In this document: piece by piece, positions 1 to 21,577 of the stretch | Layout of the letters: every line of letters starts with the position of its first letter | How positions within the stretch are numbered: the first letter of the stretch is position 1 | Source: Escherichia coli | GTDB taxonomy: Bacteria > Pseudomonadota > Gammaproteobacteria > Enterobacterales > Enterobacteriaceae | NCBI RefSeq assembly: GCF_050920415.1 | Contig: NZ_CP169309.1 | Strand: one strand, 5' to 3' | DNA length: 64,000 bases | The notes under the pieces: generated by a model | Told to the model about the DNA's origin: nothing | Database searches by the model: none | What the model saw: the letters and a program-made list of their open reading frames with translations, nothing else | Program-made: the position numbers and the translations under genes

Positions 1-287
1 GCGTCGGCCTGCGCACGCGTAAGTCGATGGCGTTCGTACTCAATAGTCCCTGGCTGGAGATCTGCCTCGCTGGCCTGCCGCAGTTCTTCAACCTCCCGGC
101 GCAGCTTTTCGTTCTCAATTTCAGCATCCCTTTCGGCATACCATTTTATAACGGCGGCAGAGTCATAAAGCACCTCATTACCCTTGCCACCGCCTCGCAG
201 AACGGGCATTCCCTGTTCCTGCCAGTTCTGAATGGTACGGATACTCGCACCGAAAATGTCAGCCAGCTGCTTTTTGTTGACTTCCAT
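1..287 (-). CDS. nu1: Terminase small subunit Nu1, N-terminal part (3' end runs off window)
   Basis: Minus-strand translation from ATG at 285-287 reads [68 protein letters not shown], recognised as the lambda Nu1 N-terminus. Confidence 0.9.
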
Positions 288-2170: not shown

Positions 2171-2638
2171 CTAGTTAATACACTGAGTGCGGATATATTC
2201 CTGCGCCCCTTCCAGCTGCTTCTGCATCATCATCAACCGCTCTCTGAGAGTGAAATAATCCCGTTCAACTGTGTCTGCCAGTCGGGGGCCGGTTGCATTA
2301 TCCACGCCGGAGGTGCCGGTGGCTTCACGCACGGTACCGGAGCAGGTGGCGTTGATCCGCAGGCGCTTACGACCAGCGGCAACATCAGCACGCAGAGTTT
2401 CATTTTCAGCTCTCGCATCGGCTAATTCCCTCGAGTATCTGGCATCAAGTGCAGCGACATCACGCTGGCGTATCTGCATATCAGTAATTGTCGCGTTCGC
2501 CAGCTCCAGCTCTCTGACTTTTTTATCGCGCTGCGCTTTGTAGGTGATGGCGTTATCGCGGTAATGATTCAGCCCCAGACCAAGCGCACCACAGGCTACC
2601 AGCAGGACAATAATCACCACACACAGAACACGGTTCAT
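2171..2638 (-). CDS. rz: Rz inner-membrane spanin (i-spanin)
   Basis: 155 aa with N-terminal TM segment and coiled-coil body ([58 protein letters not shown]); directly downstream of endolysin. Confidence 0.85.
2233..2418 (-). CDS. rz1: Rz1 outer-membrane lipoprotein spanin (o-spanin), embedded in the +1 frame of Rz
   Basis: 61 aa [61 protein letters not shown]: lipobox then proline-rich region, like lambda Rz1. Confidence 0.85.
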
Positions 2639-2778
2639 ATCCCCCTCACCCCATCATCCCCGACGAAGACAACATCATCCAGCCTAAGAGCAACCAGCAT
2701 TAGTGAAAATGAAATGCCGACGATTACACAGAGGATCTTCGCCAGCGTTATGAGCTTGTCTGACATGCTTAATCCTCT

Positions 2779-3116: not shown

Positions 3117-3650
3117 TTATCTGTCGATTCCCCAGCACGCCAGCGCGCTCTCCTGGTCACGACGGGATATCTGACCGTAACAGTTGTTTGAGCGGATACG
3201 GCAGTCTCTGCCACCGTCCTTAATCCACCAGCGAATCGCTTCACACGCTCCCCTGCGATCGCCTGCATTAATTCGTTTATAAAACGTCGACGGGAAACAC
3301 TTACCGGGGCCAATGTTATACGGGCAGAATGACGCGATCCCCGCTTTCTGGGGTTCAGTCAGTGGCACTTTGATGTTTTTCGCCACCCATGCCAGCGCCT
3401 TATCACGTTCAATGGCGTTAACCCGGTCGCATTTTTCCTTTGACAGCTTCATGCCAGGAATAACAGGCTTACCATCCACCCGGGTGGCTCCACGGCAGAT
3501 GGTCCAGATCCCCGCACCATCACGGTATGCCGTGGTGTGGTTACCTTCCTTTTCATCCAGAAACTGGTCGAGGATTTCAGGCGCAGGCGCACCTGCGGCA
3601 ATCAGCGCCAGAACGGCAGCCGACAGACCGTATTTGATTTTGGTGTTCAT
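3117..3650 (-). CDS. SAR endolysin (phage lysozyme R, GH24)
   Basis: 177 aa; N-terminal signal-anchor-release segment (LSAAVLALIAAGA) then lysozyme motif EGNHTTAYRDGAGIWTICRG. Confidence 0.9.
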   Translation of the reverse strand: MNTKIKYGLSAAVLALIAAGAPAPEILDQFLDEKEGNHTTAYRDGAGIWTICRGATRVDGKPVIPGMKLSKEKCDRVNAIERDKALAWVAKNIKVPLTEPQKAGIASFCPYNIGPGKCFPSTFYKRINAGDRRGACEAIRWWIKDGGRDCRIRSNNCYGQISRRDQESALACWGIDR

Positions 3651-3778
3651 GGATATTTATCAGGATTTATCGGTTCCGAATCCCTGGATATGTTAAGTCT
3701 TCAGCCTGCCAGTGGTGGGCACTGGTGTTTTACCTGATGGCTGAAATATATCTGACAATTCCCGTCGAGGATTTAGCA

Positions 3779-4093
3779 ATGTATAACGATGAACATAAAT
3801 ATACCGCCTGCATGCAGGCCATGAATGAACAATTTAAATCAGCATTCCTTAAACTCATTCAGCAAAACCACAAAGCAGTAAAATCCATTCAGGCTGAGCC
3901 GTATGGACACCTCACACCACCAACTCTCGACATTATGTCCAGAATATTAACACCAGCCATGCTTCTACGTCTGAAAGACAATATAAATGACTGGTTAAAC
4001 GAAGAATTAAACTACCTTGAATGTGAGTGGGATCATCATTACGCCAAATCACAAAAAGAACGCATCTTCCGTCGATTATCCGGCAACAGATAA
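3779..4093 (+). CDS. Hypothetical protein, opposite strand to lysis genes (insert in lysis cassette)
   Basis: 104-aa ORF from ATG with GAGGA RBS 7 nt upstream; converges on the 4103-4743 gene with a 9-nt gap. Confidence 0.45.
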   Translation: MYNDEHKYTACMQAMNEQFKSAFLKLIQQNHKAVKSIQAEPYGHLTPPTLDIMSRILTPAMLLRLKDNINDWLNEELNYLECEWDHHYAKSQKERIFRRLSGNR

Positions 4094-4102
4094 CGAGCCA
4101 GC

Positions 4103-4743
4103 TTATATACGTCCTTTAAGATAAGTCAGTCCTGGATGAAACCAGTAAGCAGGCACTTTTTTAAAGGGTGGATTATCAAAATCACGAAGAAGAGCCTCCC
4201 GCACAACTGCATCCTTGTCCGCACCACTGGCCAGCGCTTCAATCTCAGCAGCTACCTGCAGATATCCCATGCAACGACCAATGCGCTTCATTAGTCCCTG
4301 CTTTTTATTGTTCTTCAGGTAATCAATGGCAAATTCAATGAGCGCCTCACTGTGCTGGTGCGATGCTGGTGTTACTTTTCCATCTTCACGGATCGTGATA
4401 TTCCAGTCATCGCTTGTCACAATAAAAGATGGCCGATTCCCCCCCCATGCCTGGTCTTTATCCGGTGCAGACGCAATAAAATAACGTTTATTGCCTTCCT
4501 CTCCGGCACTTTTAACTGTAATGGAGTACTTTTCTGACAATGCGGTCGGTAAAAACTTTTCCTGCAAAATCTTCTCAAAGGTCCTGCGAGCAATTTTGAT
4601 GCAATCATCGTAAAACGCTGCTTCCTGCTCATCGCGGCGTTTTTTTCATCTTCAGAAACCATCAGCACCGACAGTTTTTTATTCAGTTCAGTGATTTCAT
4701 TTTCCAGGCAACTTATGCGCTGATTCATTTCTTCATGGTTCAT
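4103..4743 (-). pseudogene. Hypothetical protein gene between holin and endolysin, interrupted by a frameshift (ORFs 4417-4743 and 4103-4567)
   Basis: N-terminal ORF (MNHEEMNQRISCLENEITELNKKLSVLMVSEDEK) and C-terminal ORF (...QEKFLPTALSEKYSITVKSAGEE...) join into one plausible protein if the A/T run at 4640-4646 had one more base (EDEKKRRDEQEAAFYDDCIKIARRTFEKILQEKF). Confidence 0.5.
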
Positions 4744-4746
4744 CGT

Positions 4747-4962
4747 CTACTCTCCCCGCGCCGCCTTACGCCGGTCCTCTCTGATTTTGAAATACAGGTT
4801 AGTCAGGTACGTCAGCAGGCCAAACAGCAGACTCCCCAGCACACCTATCGCCACCCACTGGGACGGAGAGACTTTGTCCAGCAGCTGCAGTAACCAGTAT
4901 CCCGTCCCCACCGCTGACGTGGTGTATGACACACCTGTTGTGATTTTTTCCATCTGGTACAT
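4747..4962 (-). CDS. Holin (lambdoid EssD-like, dual-start motif)
   Basis: 71 aa [71 protein letters not shown]; matches remembered DLP12 EssD; Met-x-x-Met dual start. Confidence 0.85.
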
Positions 4963-5264
4963 ACCCCGTCTCCCGTTATCCGGAAACTGACAACAATAAA
5001 AAAGCCACCCGTTAATTACTGATGGCTCTGATGCATAAACGTCATCATTCCTGACCGTTATGATTGACAATGGTTATCATTTTTATATAAAAATACTCCC
5101 GATATGTGTTACATATCATTTCTCCACGGGGAATATCCCCACGCCAGCGTCAGACTCGTTTTCCCGTTCTCTTCTGTGCTGGCGTTTTTTTTATTATGAT
5201 GTCGGTACATTTATCTCCAGCACCAGGCTTTCAATCTCAACACCATACGCGGAATTTTTGGGCG

Positions 5265-5295
5265 TAAAAAATCCCCTCCGGTGAGGGGATTTGCT
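5265..5295. terminator. Hairpin terminator downstream of TerB-like operon (possibly bidirectional)
   Basis: CCCCTC-ACCG-GAGGGG stem with T/A runs on both sides. Confidence 0.5.
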
Positions 5296-5523
5296 TATGT
5301 AAACATTTACACTGCTTACCTGCATGGTGCCGGGTGCCTCCCGGTGAATTCAGTATCAGCACCTGAATCCGCAATTATCCCATATACCTACTTGCTGATT
5401 GCCCCTCCGCACAGGGGGATTCACCATGCGAAATTTTTTTAACAAATGCTCAGTCTGACAGGCAACTGTCAACTGGCTGAATTGTGAGACATTTAAAATT
5501 TTCGGGGCGTAACTGATACCCGG

Positions 5524-5688
5524 TTAACTACCTGGCATGTCCTTTTTCACCAAAGGAAAAAGCACCACCACAATACCGACCACCAGCACTCCATCCGCCA
5601 GCACCGACATGATCCTGCTGGTGAAATCCACCATCACCACCAGAAACAGCAGGAGTGCCACAGCGGCCAGACGCAGTTTTACCGTCAC
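5524..5688 (-). CDS. Small hydrophobic membrane protein (54 aa), translationally coupled to TerB-like gene
   Basis: GTG start overlapping the TerB-like TGA stop (GTGA); GGAGAA RBS; product VTVKLRLAAVALLLFLVVMVDFTSRIMSVLADGVLVVGIVVVLFPLVKKDMPGS is almost wholly hydrophobic; below the ORF-track length cut-off. Confidence 0.4.
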   Translation of the reverse strand: MTVKLRLAAVALLLFLVVMVDFTSRIMSVLADGVLVVGIVVVLFPLVKKDMPGS

Positions 5689-6116
5689 AGGTGGTTCTCC
5701 AGTCGCAGGCCAAGAACACCAGCAATCTCTTCCAGAACCTTACGCTCTTCCGGCTCAATTTCACCATCTGCTTCAGCAATGGCCACCGCCACATCCAGCA
5801 CATCTTCCGCTTCACGCGTATCGTGTTTCACATCTTCAATTTCACGCAACGCTGCACGACGACCAATTTTAAAATTGGTGTCAAGCTGACCTGTGATCGT
5901 GGCACTGATGGCATTAATTTCTGACGTAAACGTGGACAACGCTGGCTGGTTACGTAATACCTGTTCGATCTTCGCTTTCTCTGAAGTCTCACATTCACCA
6001 TCTGCATAGGCCACTAGGTAGGCAGCATTAATAACCGCCTGTGCCAGATCGCGTTTCTCAAACTTTTTAATTTCAGTTGCTGCTCTGCGGGTTTTCTTTT
6101 TGAAAATACCAAACAT
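5685..6116 (-). CDS. TerB-like (tellurite-resistance TerB domain) protein
   Basis: 143 aa with paired acidic helices typical of TerB (LAQAVINAAYLVAYADGECETSEKAKIEQVL ... VLDVAVAIAEADGEIEPEERKVLEEIAGVLGL). Confidence 0.7.
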   Translation of the reverse strand: MFGIFKKKTRRAATEIKKFEKRDLAQAVINAAYLVAYADGECETSEKAKIEQVLRNQPALSTFTSEINAISATITGQLDTNFKIGRRAALREIEDVKHDTREAEDVLDVAVAIAEADGEIEPEERKVLEEIAGVLGLRLENHL

Positions 6117-6289: not shown

Positions 6290-6366
6290 TGGCGCGTTGT
6301 ACTGGATTCGAACCAGTGACCGATTGCTTAGAAGGCAATTGCTCTGTCCGACTGAGCTAACAACGC
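6290..6366 (-). tRNA. tRNA-Arg (anticodon UCU), phage-encoded
   Basis: Minus strand GCGTTGTTAGCTCAGTCGGACAGAGCAATTGCCTTCTAAGCAATCGGTCACTGGTTCGAATCCAGTACAACGCGCCA folds as a canonical cloverleaf with anticodon loop CTTCTAA. Confidence 0.85.
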
Positions 6367-6379
6367 ATGATGCAGATAA

Positions 6380-6460
6380 TGGACCGCCATCGAGGACTCG
6401 AACCCCGCACCAACAACCCTGTTATCGTGTCGTCTGCTCTTCCTGATGAGCTAATGGCGG
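6380..6460 (-). tRNA. Atypical tRNA-like gene (acceptor, D and T arms present; anticodon arm does not fold canonically; possibly degenerate)
   Basis: Minus strand CCGCCATTAGCTCATCAGGAAGAGCAGACGACACGATAACAGGGTTGTTGGTGCGGGGTTCGAGTCCTCGATGGCGGTCCA: acceptor pairing, GCTC/GAGC D stem, GTTCGAGTC T arm and CCA end, but 27 nt between D and T stems. Confidence 0.45.
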
Positions 6461-6467
6461 TACGTTA

Positions 6468-6542
6468 TGGTGGCCCTGCTGGATTTGAACCAGCGACCTG
6501 GCGATTATGAGTCGCTCACTCTCACCACTGAGCTAAAGGGCC
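6468..6542 (-). tRNA. tRNA with CAU anticodon (resembles E. coli tRNA-Ile2, lysidine type; could be Met type)
   Basis: Minus strand GGCCCTTTAGCTCAGTGGTGAGAGTGAGCGACTCATAATCGCCAGGTCGCTGGTTCAAATCCAGCAGGGCCACCA; anticodon loop CTCATAA; acceptor stem one pair short of canonical. Confidence 0.8.
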
Positions 6543-6582
6543 GGGCGCAGGATAATAACGGTACGTAACTAATTCTGCAATA

Positions 6583-8796: not shown

Positions 8797-9162
8797 CTAA
8801 CGATCCATCTCTAGCTCAATTTCTAACATCATTAACATGCCATCAACTACACCTTCAGCCTTTTGCAATAAACGCCCAACCCAGCAATCAGAACGCCCAT
8901 GTTTACGGGCAAGCGCCATAAACGTCATACCACCTACATAATAATCCACTAATAAATCGTGCAAATCGCTGTTGTTCTTTTTCAGGCGAGCCATGCACCC
9001 ACAAATGATCATCGCGTCATCGTCACAACATTGCGGGCGGGATTTTACTTTTGAAGGGATTAGTCCTTTAAATCCTGCAGCAATAGACGACCAGGTGACA
9101 TCCTCGTGATTATTTGCCACCCATGCCCCCCAACGTTCAAGAACCATTTGAATATCACGCAT
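8797..9162 (-). CDS. Late antitermination protein Q (QuuD-like)
   Basis: [14 protein letters not shown]...[35 protein letters not shown]...ELEMDR; recognised as DLP12 QuuD-type Q with Cys cluster. Confidence 0.85.
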
Positions 9163-12072: not shown

Positions 12073-12395
12073 ACTTTCAGGCCCCTCTCATGTAACCAGT
12101 GGGTTGCACGCAGCCTGGCGTTTTCCTCACCGGCAAGCAGTGAGCGGATAATCCCGACCGCCTCGCTGTCGTCGTCCTTCATCGCAGTATGAAGCGTTAT
12201 CCCCCGGGCCACGCCACGCTTTATCGTGATGACGCCTTTTTTCTCCAGTGCGCGAAGATGCTCCACCGCTGCATTCACTGAACGGTATCCCAGCATGGTT
12301 GCCACCTCCTGATTGGTTGGCGGGAAGCCACGTTCTTTCTGATAAGAAATCAGCATATCCAGCACCTGCTGCTGGCATTGAGTTAACGTCGTCAT
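12069..12395 (-). CDS. LexA N-terminal-like winged-helix DNA-binding protein (no peptidase domain)
   Basis: MTTLTQCQQQVLDMLISYQKERGFPPTNQEVATMLGYRSVNAAVEHLRALEKKGVITIKRGVARGITL parallels the LexA N-terminal domain; ATG overlaps the upstream gene stop (ATGA). Confidence 0.75.
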   Translation of the reverse strand: MTTLTQCQQQVLDMLISYQKERGFPPTNQEVATMLGYRSVNAAVEHLRALEKKGVITIKRGVARGITLHTAMKDDDSEAVGIIRSLLAGEENARLRATHWLHERGLKV

Positions 12396-13044
12396 GCCGC
12401 CATCTCCCTGACCAGTTTTTCCGCCTGCTGGCGAACCTGCGCCAGAAACGCCTCACCACATGCCTCAAGTTCATCGCGCCCGATGTAGCTGATTGCCGGT
12501 CCCTTCCAGGTCTGTCGAAAACAGCAATAGCACCAGCGAAGAAAGCGCCTGTCGGCACCTGCTTCTCATCTTTCGGGATAAACCAGGCAGGCAGTTCAAA
12601 ACCAATACGCCCGCGAATAAAAGCAATATGATCTGCATCTTCCGGCCACCACACTTCGCTGGTGGCAGCTTTGATCAGGAAAACATAGCGCCCGCCTTTA
12701 TCACGCATGGCACTGGCATGTTTCATGATGTAACGCATGCCGGTGATGTATTGCCCCTCATGCTGACTGGCGCGGCTGTATGGGGGATTACCAAAGGCAG
12801 CACCTTTAAGCTCCGCAAGACGTTCTGACCAGTCATGCGCCAGCGCGTTGTCTTCCGCCGTGTAATACGCGGTACATTTGGCGTTATCACCGTCAGTAAA
12901 CAGATCCAGGACAAACGGGCCAAACAGGGTGTTAATTCCCCAGAAAATGTTACCCGGCGTGCGCCACTGATCGCCCACTTCCTTCAGTTCATGGGCTGGT
13001 TTGTTCCGCAGTTCCACCAGCGCCCGGCAATATTTATTACTCAT
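12392..13044 (-). pseudogene. Phage Dam-family N6-adenine DNA methyltransferase with a 1-nt frameshift near 12505-12522
   Basis: N-terminal frame: MSNKYCRALVEL...GAAFGNPPYS...FFAGAIAVFD. C-terminal frame: QTWKGPAISYIGRDELEACGEAFLAQVRQQAEKLVREMAA, ending in TGA overlapping the next ATG. One extra A in the A4 run (about 12518-12521) would join them. The 316-aa ORF-track read-through has an Arg-rich junk tail. Confidence 0.7.
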
Positions 13045-19908: not shown

Positions 19909-20445
19909 ATGTCATTTATCAAAACTTTTTCTGGGAAGCATTTTTATTATGACAGGATAAATAAAGACGACATCGATATTAACGATATCGCGGTTTCCCT
20001 TTCAAATATCTGTCGCTTTGCCGGTCATCTTTCGCACTTCTACAGCGTCGCCCAACATGCGGTTCTTTGCAGCCAGCTGGTGCCGCAGGAATTTGCTTTT
20101 GAAGCGTTAATGCATGATGCAACAGAAGCGTATTGCCAGGACATTCCCGCACCACTGAAACGCCTTCTTCCTGACTATAAACGGATGGAAGAAAAAATAG
20201 ACGCCGTAATCCGTGAGAAATACGGGTTACCCCCGGTTATGAGTACACCCGTGAAATATGCCGATCTCATCATGCTGGCAACCGAACGCCGCGATCTCGG
20301 GCTTGATGATGGCTCTTTCTGGCCTGTACTGGAAGGCATCCCGGCAACAGAGATGTTCAACGTGATTCCACTGGCACCGGGCCATGCCTACGGGATGTTT
20401 ATGGAACGTTTTAACGATTTATCGGAGTTACGCAAATGCGCATGA
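19909..20445 (+). CDS. YfdR-like HD-domain phosphohydrolase
   Basis: 178 aa from MSFIKTFSGKHFYYDR...; HD motif region HFYSVAQHAVLCS...LMHDATEAY. Confidence 0.75.
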   Translation: MSFIKTFSGKHFYYDRINKDDIDINDIAVSLSNICRFAGHLSHFYSVAQHAVLCSQLVPQEFAFEALMHDATEAYCQDIPAPLKRLLPDYKRMEEKIDAVIREKYGLPPVMSTPVKYADLIMLATERRDLGLDDGSFWPVLEGIPATEMFNVIPLAPGHAYGMFMERFNDLSELRKCA

Positions 20446-20798
20446 ATGTTTTCGAAATGGAAGGGTTTCTTCGCGGGAAATGTGTACCGCGAGATCTGAA
20501 AGTGAACGAAACAAATGCTGAGTACCTGGTACGTAAATTCGACGCGCTTGAAGCTAAATGTGCGGCACTGGAAAACAAAATAATACCAGTGTCAACTGAA
20601 CTGCCACCAGCAAATGAAAGTGTTCTGTTATTTGATGCTAATGGAGAAGGCTGGCTGATTGGCTGGCGTTCTCTCTGGTACACCTAGGGACAAAAAGAAA
20701 CCGGAGAATGGCAGTGGACATTTCAGGTCGGGGACCTTGAAAACGTCAATATCACTCACTGGGCAGTAGTGCCAAAAGCACCGGAGGCTGGAGCATAA
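20436..20798 (+). pseudogene. YfdS-like gene interrupted by an in-frame TAG at 20685-20687
   Basis: The frame continues after the TAG as GQKETGEWQWTFQVGDLENVNITHWAVVPKAPEAGA and ends at a TAA overlapping the next ATG (TAATG at 20796-20800); total length 120 codons. Confidence 0.5.
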
Positions 20799-21577
20799 TG
20801 ACCACATTTACCAATAAAGAACTGATTAAAGAAATCAAAGAACGAATCAGCAGCCTAGAGGTTCGAGACGATATTGAGCGCCGTGCTTATGAAATTGCTC
20901 TGGCATCGCTAGAAGAGGAGCCGGTGGCGTGGCTGCATTCAGAAAATGGCTTAGGTATTCCGGCAATAACGAGGAGTAAAAACATTGCTGACAGTTGGTT
21001 ATCAAAGGGCTGGTATGTTCAGCCGCTATATATAGCCAAGCCAGTGCCGGTAGTGCCAGATGCTCGTCCGTCTTTAAATAATGGCATAGTCGGTTTTGAT
21101 GAAGGCTGGAACGCCTGCCGCGCCGCCATGCTTCATGGTGCCGAACCTGTAAACCAAACTTACAAGTCACCACACACGCAGTTTGAACAAGTTGCTGACC
21201 TCTACGAAATGCAATTTGATGACGGTCGCACTTGTGCCTTTCACACTGATGCGCAAAAGGCTGCGCAATGGCTTCAGGTGTGCGACGGAAACAGGGTTCA
21301 GGAATACGTTAAGCTGGAACGGCTGCAGAACGCGCTGTCTGGCAACTCTCCGGTAAGTCCAGGTGGTTGGATAAGCTGTAGTGAGCGAATGCCGAATGAT
21401 AAACAGTATGTTTGGTGTTGGGGGAAGTCTTACGGCTGGACTGAGTGCGATACCTTCGAAGGGTATTACGATTGGTCGAGAAACAAATGGTGGGCAGTTA
21501 CTGACAATGAGGAAGAACAGGCATCGAAAGTAACCCACTGGATGCCACTACCGGAGCCGCCGCAGGAGGTGAAGTAA
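20798..21577 (+). CDS. Hypothetical protein with DUF551-like Trp-rich C-terminal region
   Basis: 259 aa; C-terminal WISCSERMPNDKQYVWCWGKSYGWTECDTFEGYYDWSRNKWWAVTDN...HWMPLPEPP pattern. Confidence 0.6.
   Translation: MTTFTNKELIKEIKERISSLEVRDDIERRAYEIALASLEEEPVAWLHSENGLGIPAITRSKNIADSWLSKGWYVQPLYIAKPVPVVPDARPSLNNGIVGFDEGWNACRAAMLHGAEPVNQTYKSPHTQFEQVADLYEMQFDDGRTCAFHTDAQKAAQWLQVCDGNRVQEYVKLERLQNALSGNSPVSPGGWISCSERMPNDKQYVWCWGKSYGWTECDTFEGYYDWSRNKWWAVTDNEEEQASKVTHWMPLPEPPQEVK

Follow-up and report, generated by a model that had tools for sequence, protein, structure and literature searches.

A convergent gene pair between the holin and endolysin genes of an Escherichia coli prophage: probable accessory cargo with an inherited frameshift

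Introduction

In a 64,000-nucleotide (nt) stretch of Escherichia coli DNA (the window), which is 100% identical to the chromosome of E. coli MFDS1022581 (NZ_CP169399.1), the holin gene S of a lambdoid prophage is separated from the signal-arrest-release (SAR) endolysin gene R by two convergent genes, designated here X and Y, of which X is interrupted at a run of A residues. The question raised by this locus is what such a pair does within a lysis cassette and whether the interruption is an error, a switch, or an inherited loss. An initial annotation, made from the letters alone, had described the cassette as split by a convergent pair between holin and SAR endolysin, with a gene of 104 amino acids (aa) on the opposite strand and 3' ends 9 nt apart (4094-4102), and all of this was confirmed together with its open reading frames (ORFs) and its T7 run at 4640-4646, which is A7 on the strand of X. 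It offered three readings, namely cargo, a lysis regulator, or a slippage-switched gene. The explanation favoured here, to which a probability of about 0.72 is given, is that X and Y form an optional cargo segment of ~1.1 kilobases (kb) in a polymorphic slot between S and R, that X was inactivated when one A dropped out of an A8 run, in an event of single origin, and that the two gene products are probably partners. The locus is ordinary mosaic prophage cargo together with an inherited pseudogene, not a genetic switch.

Gene X and its intact form

Gene X begins 3 nt past the holin stop codon and is read in the window as two overlapping ORFs on the minus strand, 4417-4743 (108 aa) and 4103-4567 (154 aa). 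In a relative that is 99% identical (NZ_CP045827) the aligned run has a single extra A (A8) and lies in one uninterrupted ORF of 213 codons, and when one A is added to the window sequence the same 213-aa protein (WP_001015166-like) is obtained. The earlier proposal that one more base would fuse the two ORFs was right, while the predicted length of about 240 aa was not; that the two ORFs might be naturally separate genes is contradicted by the homologues, in which X is one gene. In intact alleles the run is read as GAA AAA AAA CGC (E K K R), and the two lysines belong to the motif E-D/A-K-K-R-R-D-E-Q. In the RefSeq annotation of NZ_CP169399.1, produced by the Prokaryotic Genome Annotation Pipeline (PGAP), the interval 4103-4743 is already flagged as frameshifted.

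Compared with an 84% identical homologue, X has a ratio of nonsynonymous to synonymous substitution rates (dN/dS) of 0.30, which indicates that the intact gene is under purifying selection. Its maximum hydropathy over 19 aa is 0.76 and it is without a membrane segment. Searches of X against Pfam, NCBIfam, and PADLOC gave no match, and its PHROG family (phrog_1085) is labelled as of unknown function.

Origin of the A7 allele

The length of the run was followed with a 111-nt probe around it, which was found in 70 of the 5426 complete E. coli genomes searched. Exact A7 matches were limited to the source genome (MFDS1022581) and to OkiPb01695, where the allele lies in a prophage with the Shiga toxin (Stx) type Stx2g; the remaining probe matches listed were one base longer, the A8 form being present at 100% in 27 genomes, and A8 makes up 68 of the 70. 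IMG/VR contigs with the X allele gave a similar picture (A8 in 13 of 15, A7 in 2 of 15), with no A6 or A9. The four A7 assemblies come from different projects: MFDS1022581, OkiPb01695, and IMG genomes 2531839473 and 2534681675.

The haplotypes of X are nested, leading from L019 with A8 to L009 with A7, then to L017 with A7 and two substitutions, and finally to the window and L016 with A7 and four substitutions; L016 is an independent assembly that is 99.97% identical to the window over 7.66 kb. A series of this kind points to one deletion event, which was inherited and followed by further divergence without reversion, and by it an assembly artefact is rejected and reversible switching is argued against. 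By these sequence comparisons A7 is a real, inherited allele of single origin that is present in at least four assemblies.

The changes accumulated after the frameshift in the A7 lineage are 3 nonsynonymous and 1 synonymous, a ratio that appears to agree with neutral expectation, the counts being too few to test. A second homopolymer, G8 on the coding strand of X (C8 on the plus strand, 4439-4446), arose by substitutions found in the A7 lineage only (GAT to GGT to GGG, with GAA to GCA nearby), and intact alleles read GGGGGGAT in this region. In other members of the family the A run takes the interrupted form GCAAACAAACG in Stx2_12E129 and the form GCAAAAAAACG, in frame, in PhiR12.

The holin-endolysin junction as a polymorphic slot

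The window S and R genes are 90% and 94.6% identical in DNA to those of phage 933W, in which the slot is empty and the gap from S to R is 4 nt. The Shine-Dalgarno sequence GGGGAGAG in the 3' end of the holin gene is used by X in the window and by R in 933W. By BLAST the 933W similarity of R begins at 3632, inside R, and since it resumes only there the inserted segment can be delimited as approximately 3633-4746; this segment of ~1.1 kb supplies its own first six codons of R.

Among 368 phage records with the window-type S/R pair, sampled at even spacing, the two genes were adjacent in ~60%, separated by an insert of 0.35-1.3 kb in ~20%, and separated by an X/Y insert in a few per cent. As for a moron, the segment is thus absent from otherwise collinear relatives, S and R being adjacent in 933W and in most phage records. 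The occupants are varied: ydfR alone in K-12 Qin (essQ-ydfR-rrrQ) and also in Stx1a_2054, a DUF1327 gene with a reverse DUF1823 gene in PhiR12, a single gene of 329 aa in Stx2_95, orf5 with reverse orf6 in phage 86, and a forward gene with an unannotated reverse ORF of 210 aa in the Stx1a phage Stx1_14744 (locus L012, 982-1614). The last of these ORFs looks like a real protein; as it shares sequence with the 3' portion of the forward gene, annotated at 263 aa, the two calls are probably not both right.

Such variety indicates that S and R are commonly split in these phages, as also in the K-12 reference genome, and that the junction is a polymorphic slot of Stx- and Qin-type phages. The premise of the initial annotation that holin and endolysin are normally adjacent therefore stands for 933W, but not for K-12 Qin and many Stx phages, where the slot is occupied. 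A literature search on genes between S and R in Stx- and Qin-type phages found nothing.

Modules of X and the YdfR family

By alignment of the slot proteins three modules were distinguished, namely A (DUF1327/YdfR, ~75 aa), B (a coiled coil, ~60 aa), and C (~145 aa), the last carrying the motifs H-x-H, GRCMG-LQ-AAEIE, and DFDNPPFK...W..PG..YL. In these terms X is B+C, orf5 of phage 86 is A+C, the Stx2_95 protein is A+B+C, the PhiR12 protein is A+B, and K-12 YdfR is A only. Intact X has no Pfam match and begins after the DUF1327 module (PF07041), while the homologues that carry PF07041 are 259-333 aa long; it is by its other modules and its position that X belongs with the YdfR family, the coiled coil being common to PhiR12 and Stx2_95 and the C-domain to phage 86 orf5 and Stx2_95. 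In K-12 YdfR the catalytic half of RNase E is reported to be bound by residues 1-72, the DUF1327 domain possibly binding RNA as well, and YdfR co-purifies with RNA (PMC13232886). As X is without the DUF1327 module, this binding is not transferable to it.

The family is narrow, with 189 clusters at 90% identity, all named E. coli, and an exhaustive profile search of 1.84 billion representatives returned only 43 clusters at 50%, again from the same narrow family; its more distant members combine a DUF1327-like N-terminus with the coiled coil and the C-domain. Searches with the C-domain profile against Pfam, NCBIfam, PADLOC, and PDB sequences were negative. The best match of the sequence-profile searches with X, the C-domain, and Y was a PhoU homologue (E = 0.009), which was rejected as not significant. 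The 111-nt probe, which lies within the coiled-coil module, matches the source chromosome at four places, which puts the module in three more genes, located in other prophages of the strain.

Gene Y, its leader, and its pairing with module C

PGAP starts gene Y at 3737 (118 aa), but a GAGGA Shine-Dalgarno sequence 7 nt before the ATG at 3779 and the length of the homologues (101-106 aa) favour the 104-aa form that had originally been proposed. The AlphaFold2 model of Y is a five-helix bundle and is confident (predicted local distance difference test, pLDDT, 86; predicted template modelling score, pTM, 0.80). The gene is intact, with a dN/dS of 0.27-0.48 that indicates purifying selection, and its maximum 19-aa hydropathy is 0.94, without a membrane segment. 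Fold searches with Y gave only generic helical matches or uncharacterised enterobacterial proteins, and its sequence profile had no match in Pfam or PDB. Y is thus predicted to be a soluble five-helix bundle, and it belongs to an orphan family restricted to enterobacterial prophages.

Y stands tail to tail with a module-C gene in all 44 IMG/VR loci with enough sequence, whatever the N-terminal module of that gene. In a distant metagenomic locus (L013) a 41% identical Y is likewise convergent with a C-domain gene, and in three types of Salmonella prophage (L141, L143, and L145) the two are again paired, Y being 42-47% and the C-domain 43-48% identical. The Salmonella pair lies not between S and R but upstream of the holin, beside HicAB, ParE/HTH (helix-turn-helix), or pertussis-like (ArtAB-type) toxin genes; in these prophages (L141-L146) the late-operon region is one that collects conflict and virulence cargo. 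Among 80 C-domain loci Y is present in ~30 and absent from ~50, and where it is absent X abuts R. Since Y is always found with the C-domain and the C-domain is often found alone, Y seems to depend on the C-domain and not vice versa. From these comparisons the X-Y pair appears to move as a unit within late operons. The reading as cargo, one of the three first suggested, fits best with this variable location, with the 4-nt gap between S and R in 933W, and with the variable modules of the slot.

The leader upstream of Y is also conserved. Its core, TTCAGCCYGYCAG..CACTGGYGTT, is kept in E. coli, in the metagenomic locus, and in the Salmonella prophages, where Y is only 41-47% identical, and over ~80 nt the conservation of the leader between E. 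coli and Salmonella exceeds that of Y itself. An RNA hairpin or terminator formed by the inverted repeat of the leader was considered and rejected, for all the variation falls in the 5' arm and is uncompensated in the invariant 3' arm, and the fold has a z-score of approximately -0.2. With an uncompensated 5' arm and an ordinary fold energy, the leader is more likely to mark a module boundary, or to serve as a promoter or as a binding site for a protein, than to form such a hairpin.

Proposed model and its weak points

By its position X would be translated together with the holin from the late transcript, to which Y is antisense, and no terminator was found to separate X from Y. X would thus be a product of the Q-dependent transcript, appearing late in the lytic phase, and the antisense orientation of Y makes it likely that Y is produced from a putative promoter of its own, mainly in the lysogen, when the late operon is silent. 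Pairing this strict, with the two diverging in step, suggests that the soluble X and Y are partners, Y most likely binding the C-domain of X or antagonising it. In all four A7 isolates X is dead and Y is intact; should X be the partner that is active or does harm, decay in this direction, with X lost and Y retained, would be harmless. The X/Y module would be accessory cargo and no core part of lysis control.

Several observations weigh against this model. Most C-domain loci are without Y, which is therefore not obligatory for X, and common descent of linked genes, instead of function, could account for the partnership. The family, fold, and solved-structure searches of X and Y gave no match pointing to a function, and the AlphaFold2 model of X, built on 37 homologues, was unusable (pLDDT 46.7) and was kept out of the fold search. 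Nor did a scan for consensus sequences turn up a sigma-70-like promoter for Y. Finally, the lengths of the A run come from assemblies alone, so a mixture of lengths within a culture is possible.

Alternative explanations

That the run is truly A8 and X is intact in the strain, the A7 being an error of sequencing or assembly, would suit the reputation of homopolymers as classic sites of long-read and 454 errors, as well as the PGAP frameshift flags on two other prophage genes of the window. One of these flags (on Rz) corresponds to no real indel, however, the chromosomal genes next to the prophage are free of them over 25 kb, and the occurrence of A7 in four assemblies which differ elsewhere and form a nested series makes an error hardly credible. 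Very unlikely also is a slippage-switched or recoded X, by A7-A8 phase variation or by -1 ribosomal frameshifting or transcriptional slippage on the A7 allele, even though A runs are slippage sites of polymerases and the zero frame of A7 reads GA-A AAA AAC, a canonical X_XXY_YYZ arrangement with A_AAA_AAC in frame, from which a -1 shift would give the native C-terminal frame and restore ...EDEK(K/N)RRDEQ.... Only two lengths occur in ~85 alleles and A7 is confined to one lineage without reversion, so the two-way variation of a contingency gene is lacking, and the tract is not conserved in the family, being interrupted in Stx2_12E129 and of another in-frame length in PhiR12. In E. coli, heptamers that end in AAC shift poorly in comparison with A_AAA_AAG. 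The 81 nt downstream of the run fold no better than shuffled sequences (z = +0.46), no Shine-Dalgarno-like stimulator lies upstream of it, and the homologues of X are single-frame, from which recoding is judged to be remote; selection for recoding signals is not expected where the in-frame A8 is ancestral, and the heptamer is a mere by-product of the deletion. The neutral-looking 3:1 changes after the frameshift add little here owing to their number. The switch proposed in the initial annotation is accordingly not supported.

The remaining alternatives concern what the pair does. If X or Y, or both, acted on the pinholin or the SAR endolysin as regulators of lysis timing, the frameshift would alter lysis, and this idea draws on the translational coupling of X to the holin (3-nt gap and common ribosome-binding site), on the fact that every family member found belongs to the late operon and lies no more than a few genes away from those for lysis, and on the interference that transcription of Y might cause by converging on the only route to R and Rz. 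It is nevertheless unlikely, and weaker than when first put forward, because the slot is empty in 933W and ~60% of the sampled records despite S and R being 90-94% identical, because the Salmonella pair is placed upstream of the holin, and because X has been lost in four isolates that retain the neighbouring genes; moreover neither X nor Y has a transmembrane segment or resembles a holin, as would an antiholin or membrane-bound lysis regulator. A prophage conflict system, whether defence, anti-defence, or a toxin with its neutraliser, X being active in lytic growth and Y guarding the lysogen, is rather unlikely. The strict tie of Y to a C-domain that also occurs solo, their long co-divergence (Y 41-47%, C-domain 43-48% identity), the opposite expression states that the orientation would imply, the moron-rich surroundings near HicAB, ParE, Stx, and ArtAB-like genes, and the decay of X before Y all agree with it, whereas PADLOC defence models, Pfam, and NCBIfam gave no match, no toxin-antitoxin-like domains were found, and a convergent rather than co-directional layout is atypical of type II toxin-antitoxin systems. 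A further and more novel reading, which is also rather unlikely, regards the C-domain and Y as a conserved two-component module of enterobacterial lambdoid phages whose antagonistic halves belong to opposite life-cycle states. Y would then be made in the lysogen and X from the Q-dependent transcript, with convergent transcription enforcing mutual exclusion; the pair might be a late host-directed effector with a lysogen-protecting neutraliser or a self-immunity pair in phage-phage competition, and the window would represent a decayed stage in which the neutraliser has outlasted its dead effector.

Prophage setting and lysis genes

The window begins inside a lambdoid E. coli prophage resembling Stx phages and takes in its late region, with the late operon on the minus strand, in the order Q antiterminator, DNA methyltransferase, tRNA cluster, TerB and DUF3927 genes, holin, X/Y region, endolysin, two small ORFs, and Rz/Rz1. 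Its lysis genes are a standard pinholin/SAR-endolysin/spanin cassette of the phage 21/Stx-phage type, in which a class II holin, a lysozyme with a hydrophobic N-terminus, and Rz/Rz1 lie on one strand. The maximum 19-aa hydropathy of the holin is 1.83, and that of the endolysin reaches 1.74 over residues 9-27. The Rz gene bears a RefSeq flag as frameshifted, yet no indel separates it from the Rz of a close relative, which is intact at 155 aa and collinear with it, so the flag looks like an annotation artefact. The coordinates are collected in Table 1.

Table 1. Positions of X, Y, and the associated late genes in the window
Feature	Position	Strand	Description
Gene X	4103-4743	-	pseudogene, same direction as late operon; phrog_1085
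Frameshift site in X	4640-4646	-	A7 on coding strand (T7 on +), A8 in intact alleles
X module B	residues ~1-64		coiled coil
X module C	residues ~70-213; 4103-4537	-	conserved C-terminal domain
Gene Y	3779-4093	+	104 aa, intact, convergent with X; phrog_1853
Leader of Y	3697-3778	+	conserved, non-coding; travels with Y in E. coli and Salmonella
Inverted repeat in Y leader	3708-3726		GCCAGTG-GTGGG-CACTGGT, imperfect
Holin S	4747-4962	-	71 aa, phage-21/933W-type class II pinholin; phrog_9876 and phrog_20; PGAP "class II holin family protein"
SAR endolysin R	3117-3650	-	177 aa, R21-type lysozyme, hydrophobic N-terminus; phrog_7; PGAP "lysozyme"
Two small ORFs between R and Rz	2779-2961, 2635-2766	-	late strand
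Rz i-spanin	2171-2638	-	155 aa
Rz1 o-spanin ORF	2233-2418	-	embedded in Rz
Q antiterminator	8797-9162	-	late operon

The stx site of related phages, between the tRNA cluster and the holin (5524-6116, minus strand), is filled here by TerB-family and DUF3927 genes, and in OkiPb01695 the same site holds stx2g. The tRNA cluster (6290-6543, minus strand) is of a kind typical of Stx-phage late regions; ARAGORN reads in it an Arg(tct) tRNA and a tRNA with a CAT anticodon, named Ile by PGAP, and makes no call for the PGAP "tRNA-OTHER" at 6380-6460. The untranslated stretch from the DUF3927 gene to the holin contains a strong Rfam match to the small RNA STnc100 (RF02076) at 5260-5458 on the minus strand (148.7 bits against a gathering score of 47), and a weak Esr41-like match below the gathering score lies at 5103-5193 on the plus strand. 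A phage N6-adenine methyltransferase gene (12392-13044, minus strand) is annotated as frameshifted, its long ORF running out of frame into the adjoining LexA-like gene, and truncated genes are found near the integrase (20436-21577). Together these damaged genes suggest a decaying prophage.

Significance and comparison with known systems

In itself the locus is of little consequence, being a pseudogene in optional cargo that had been publicly flagged as frameshifted already, and no new lysis mechanism or genetic switch is seen at it. Of modest value is the recognition of the S-R junction as a recombination slot whose contents are reshuffled modules from the YdfR set, one member of which, YdfR, was recently reported to bind RNase E. 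Of modest value too is the pairing of a small orphan protein with module C, tail to tail, which is strict and ancient, extending from E. coli to Salmonella. The pair of the X C-domain and Y is a concrete and testable subject for work on the accessory genes of Shiga-toxin phages, and this conserved convergent pair is the sole mildly interesting part of the locus and the only one that could be worth experiments.

One of the closest known arrangements is essQ-ydfR-rrrQ of K-12 Qin, where, as with X, the slot holds a late-strand gene for a soluble protein, preceded by a 71-aa class II holin and followed by an R21-type lysozyme. X has its coiled coil and its C-terminal module in common with the larger proteins of the YdfR family. 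Unlike the window, K-12 Qin has no convergent Y gene, and its YdfR has the DUF1327 domain that X is without. The same architecture as in the window, with holin, late-strand C-domain gene, convergent 104-aa gene, and endolysin, is found in phage 86 (AB255436; orf5/orf6) and in the Stx2a phage Stx2_12E129, whose counterparts of Y are 66-68% identical. The X of Stx2_12E129 is 84% identical to that of the window and 213 aa long, while orf5 of phage 86 differs from X in having the DUF1327 module in place of the coiled coil. Both copies differ from the window X in being intact, and both are annotated merely as hypothetical.

As a segment, X/Y can be compared with the cargo of lambdoid late operons (bor, lom, stx, and ant between R and Rz in 933W), which is likewise optional between conserved late genes. 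It resembles these morons in its absence from close relatives, in the sharp breaks of homology at gene ends, and in its orientation partly counter to the operon, and it differs from them in that no promoter or terminator of its own was found and X is apparently expressed with the late operon, not independently. In its A run X is unlike true contingency loci, the run being near-constant in length among relatives and unconserved in the family, and it is like the homopolymer frameshift pseudogenes of decaying prophages, with a single-base loss in a coding mononucleotide run and other damaged genes in the same prophage.

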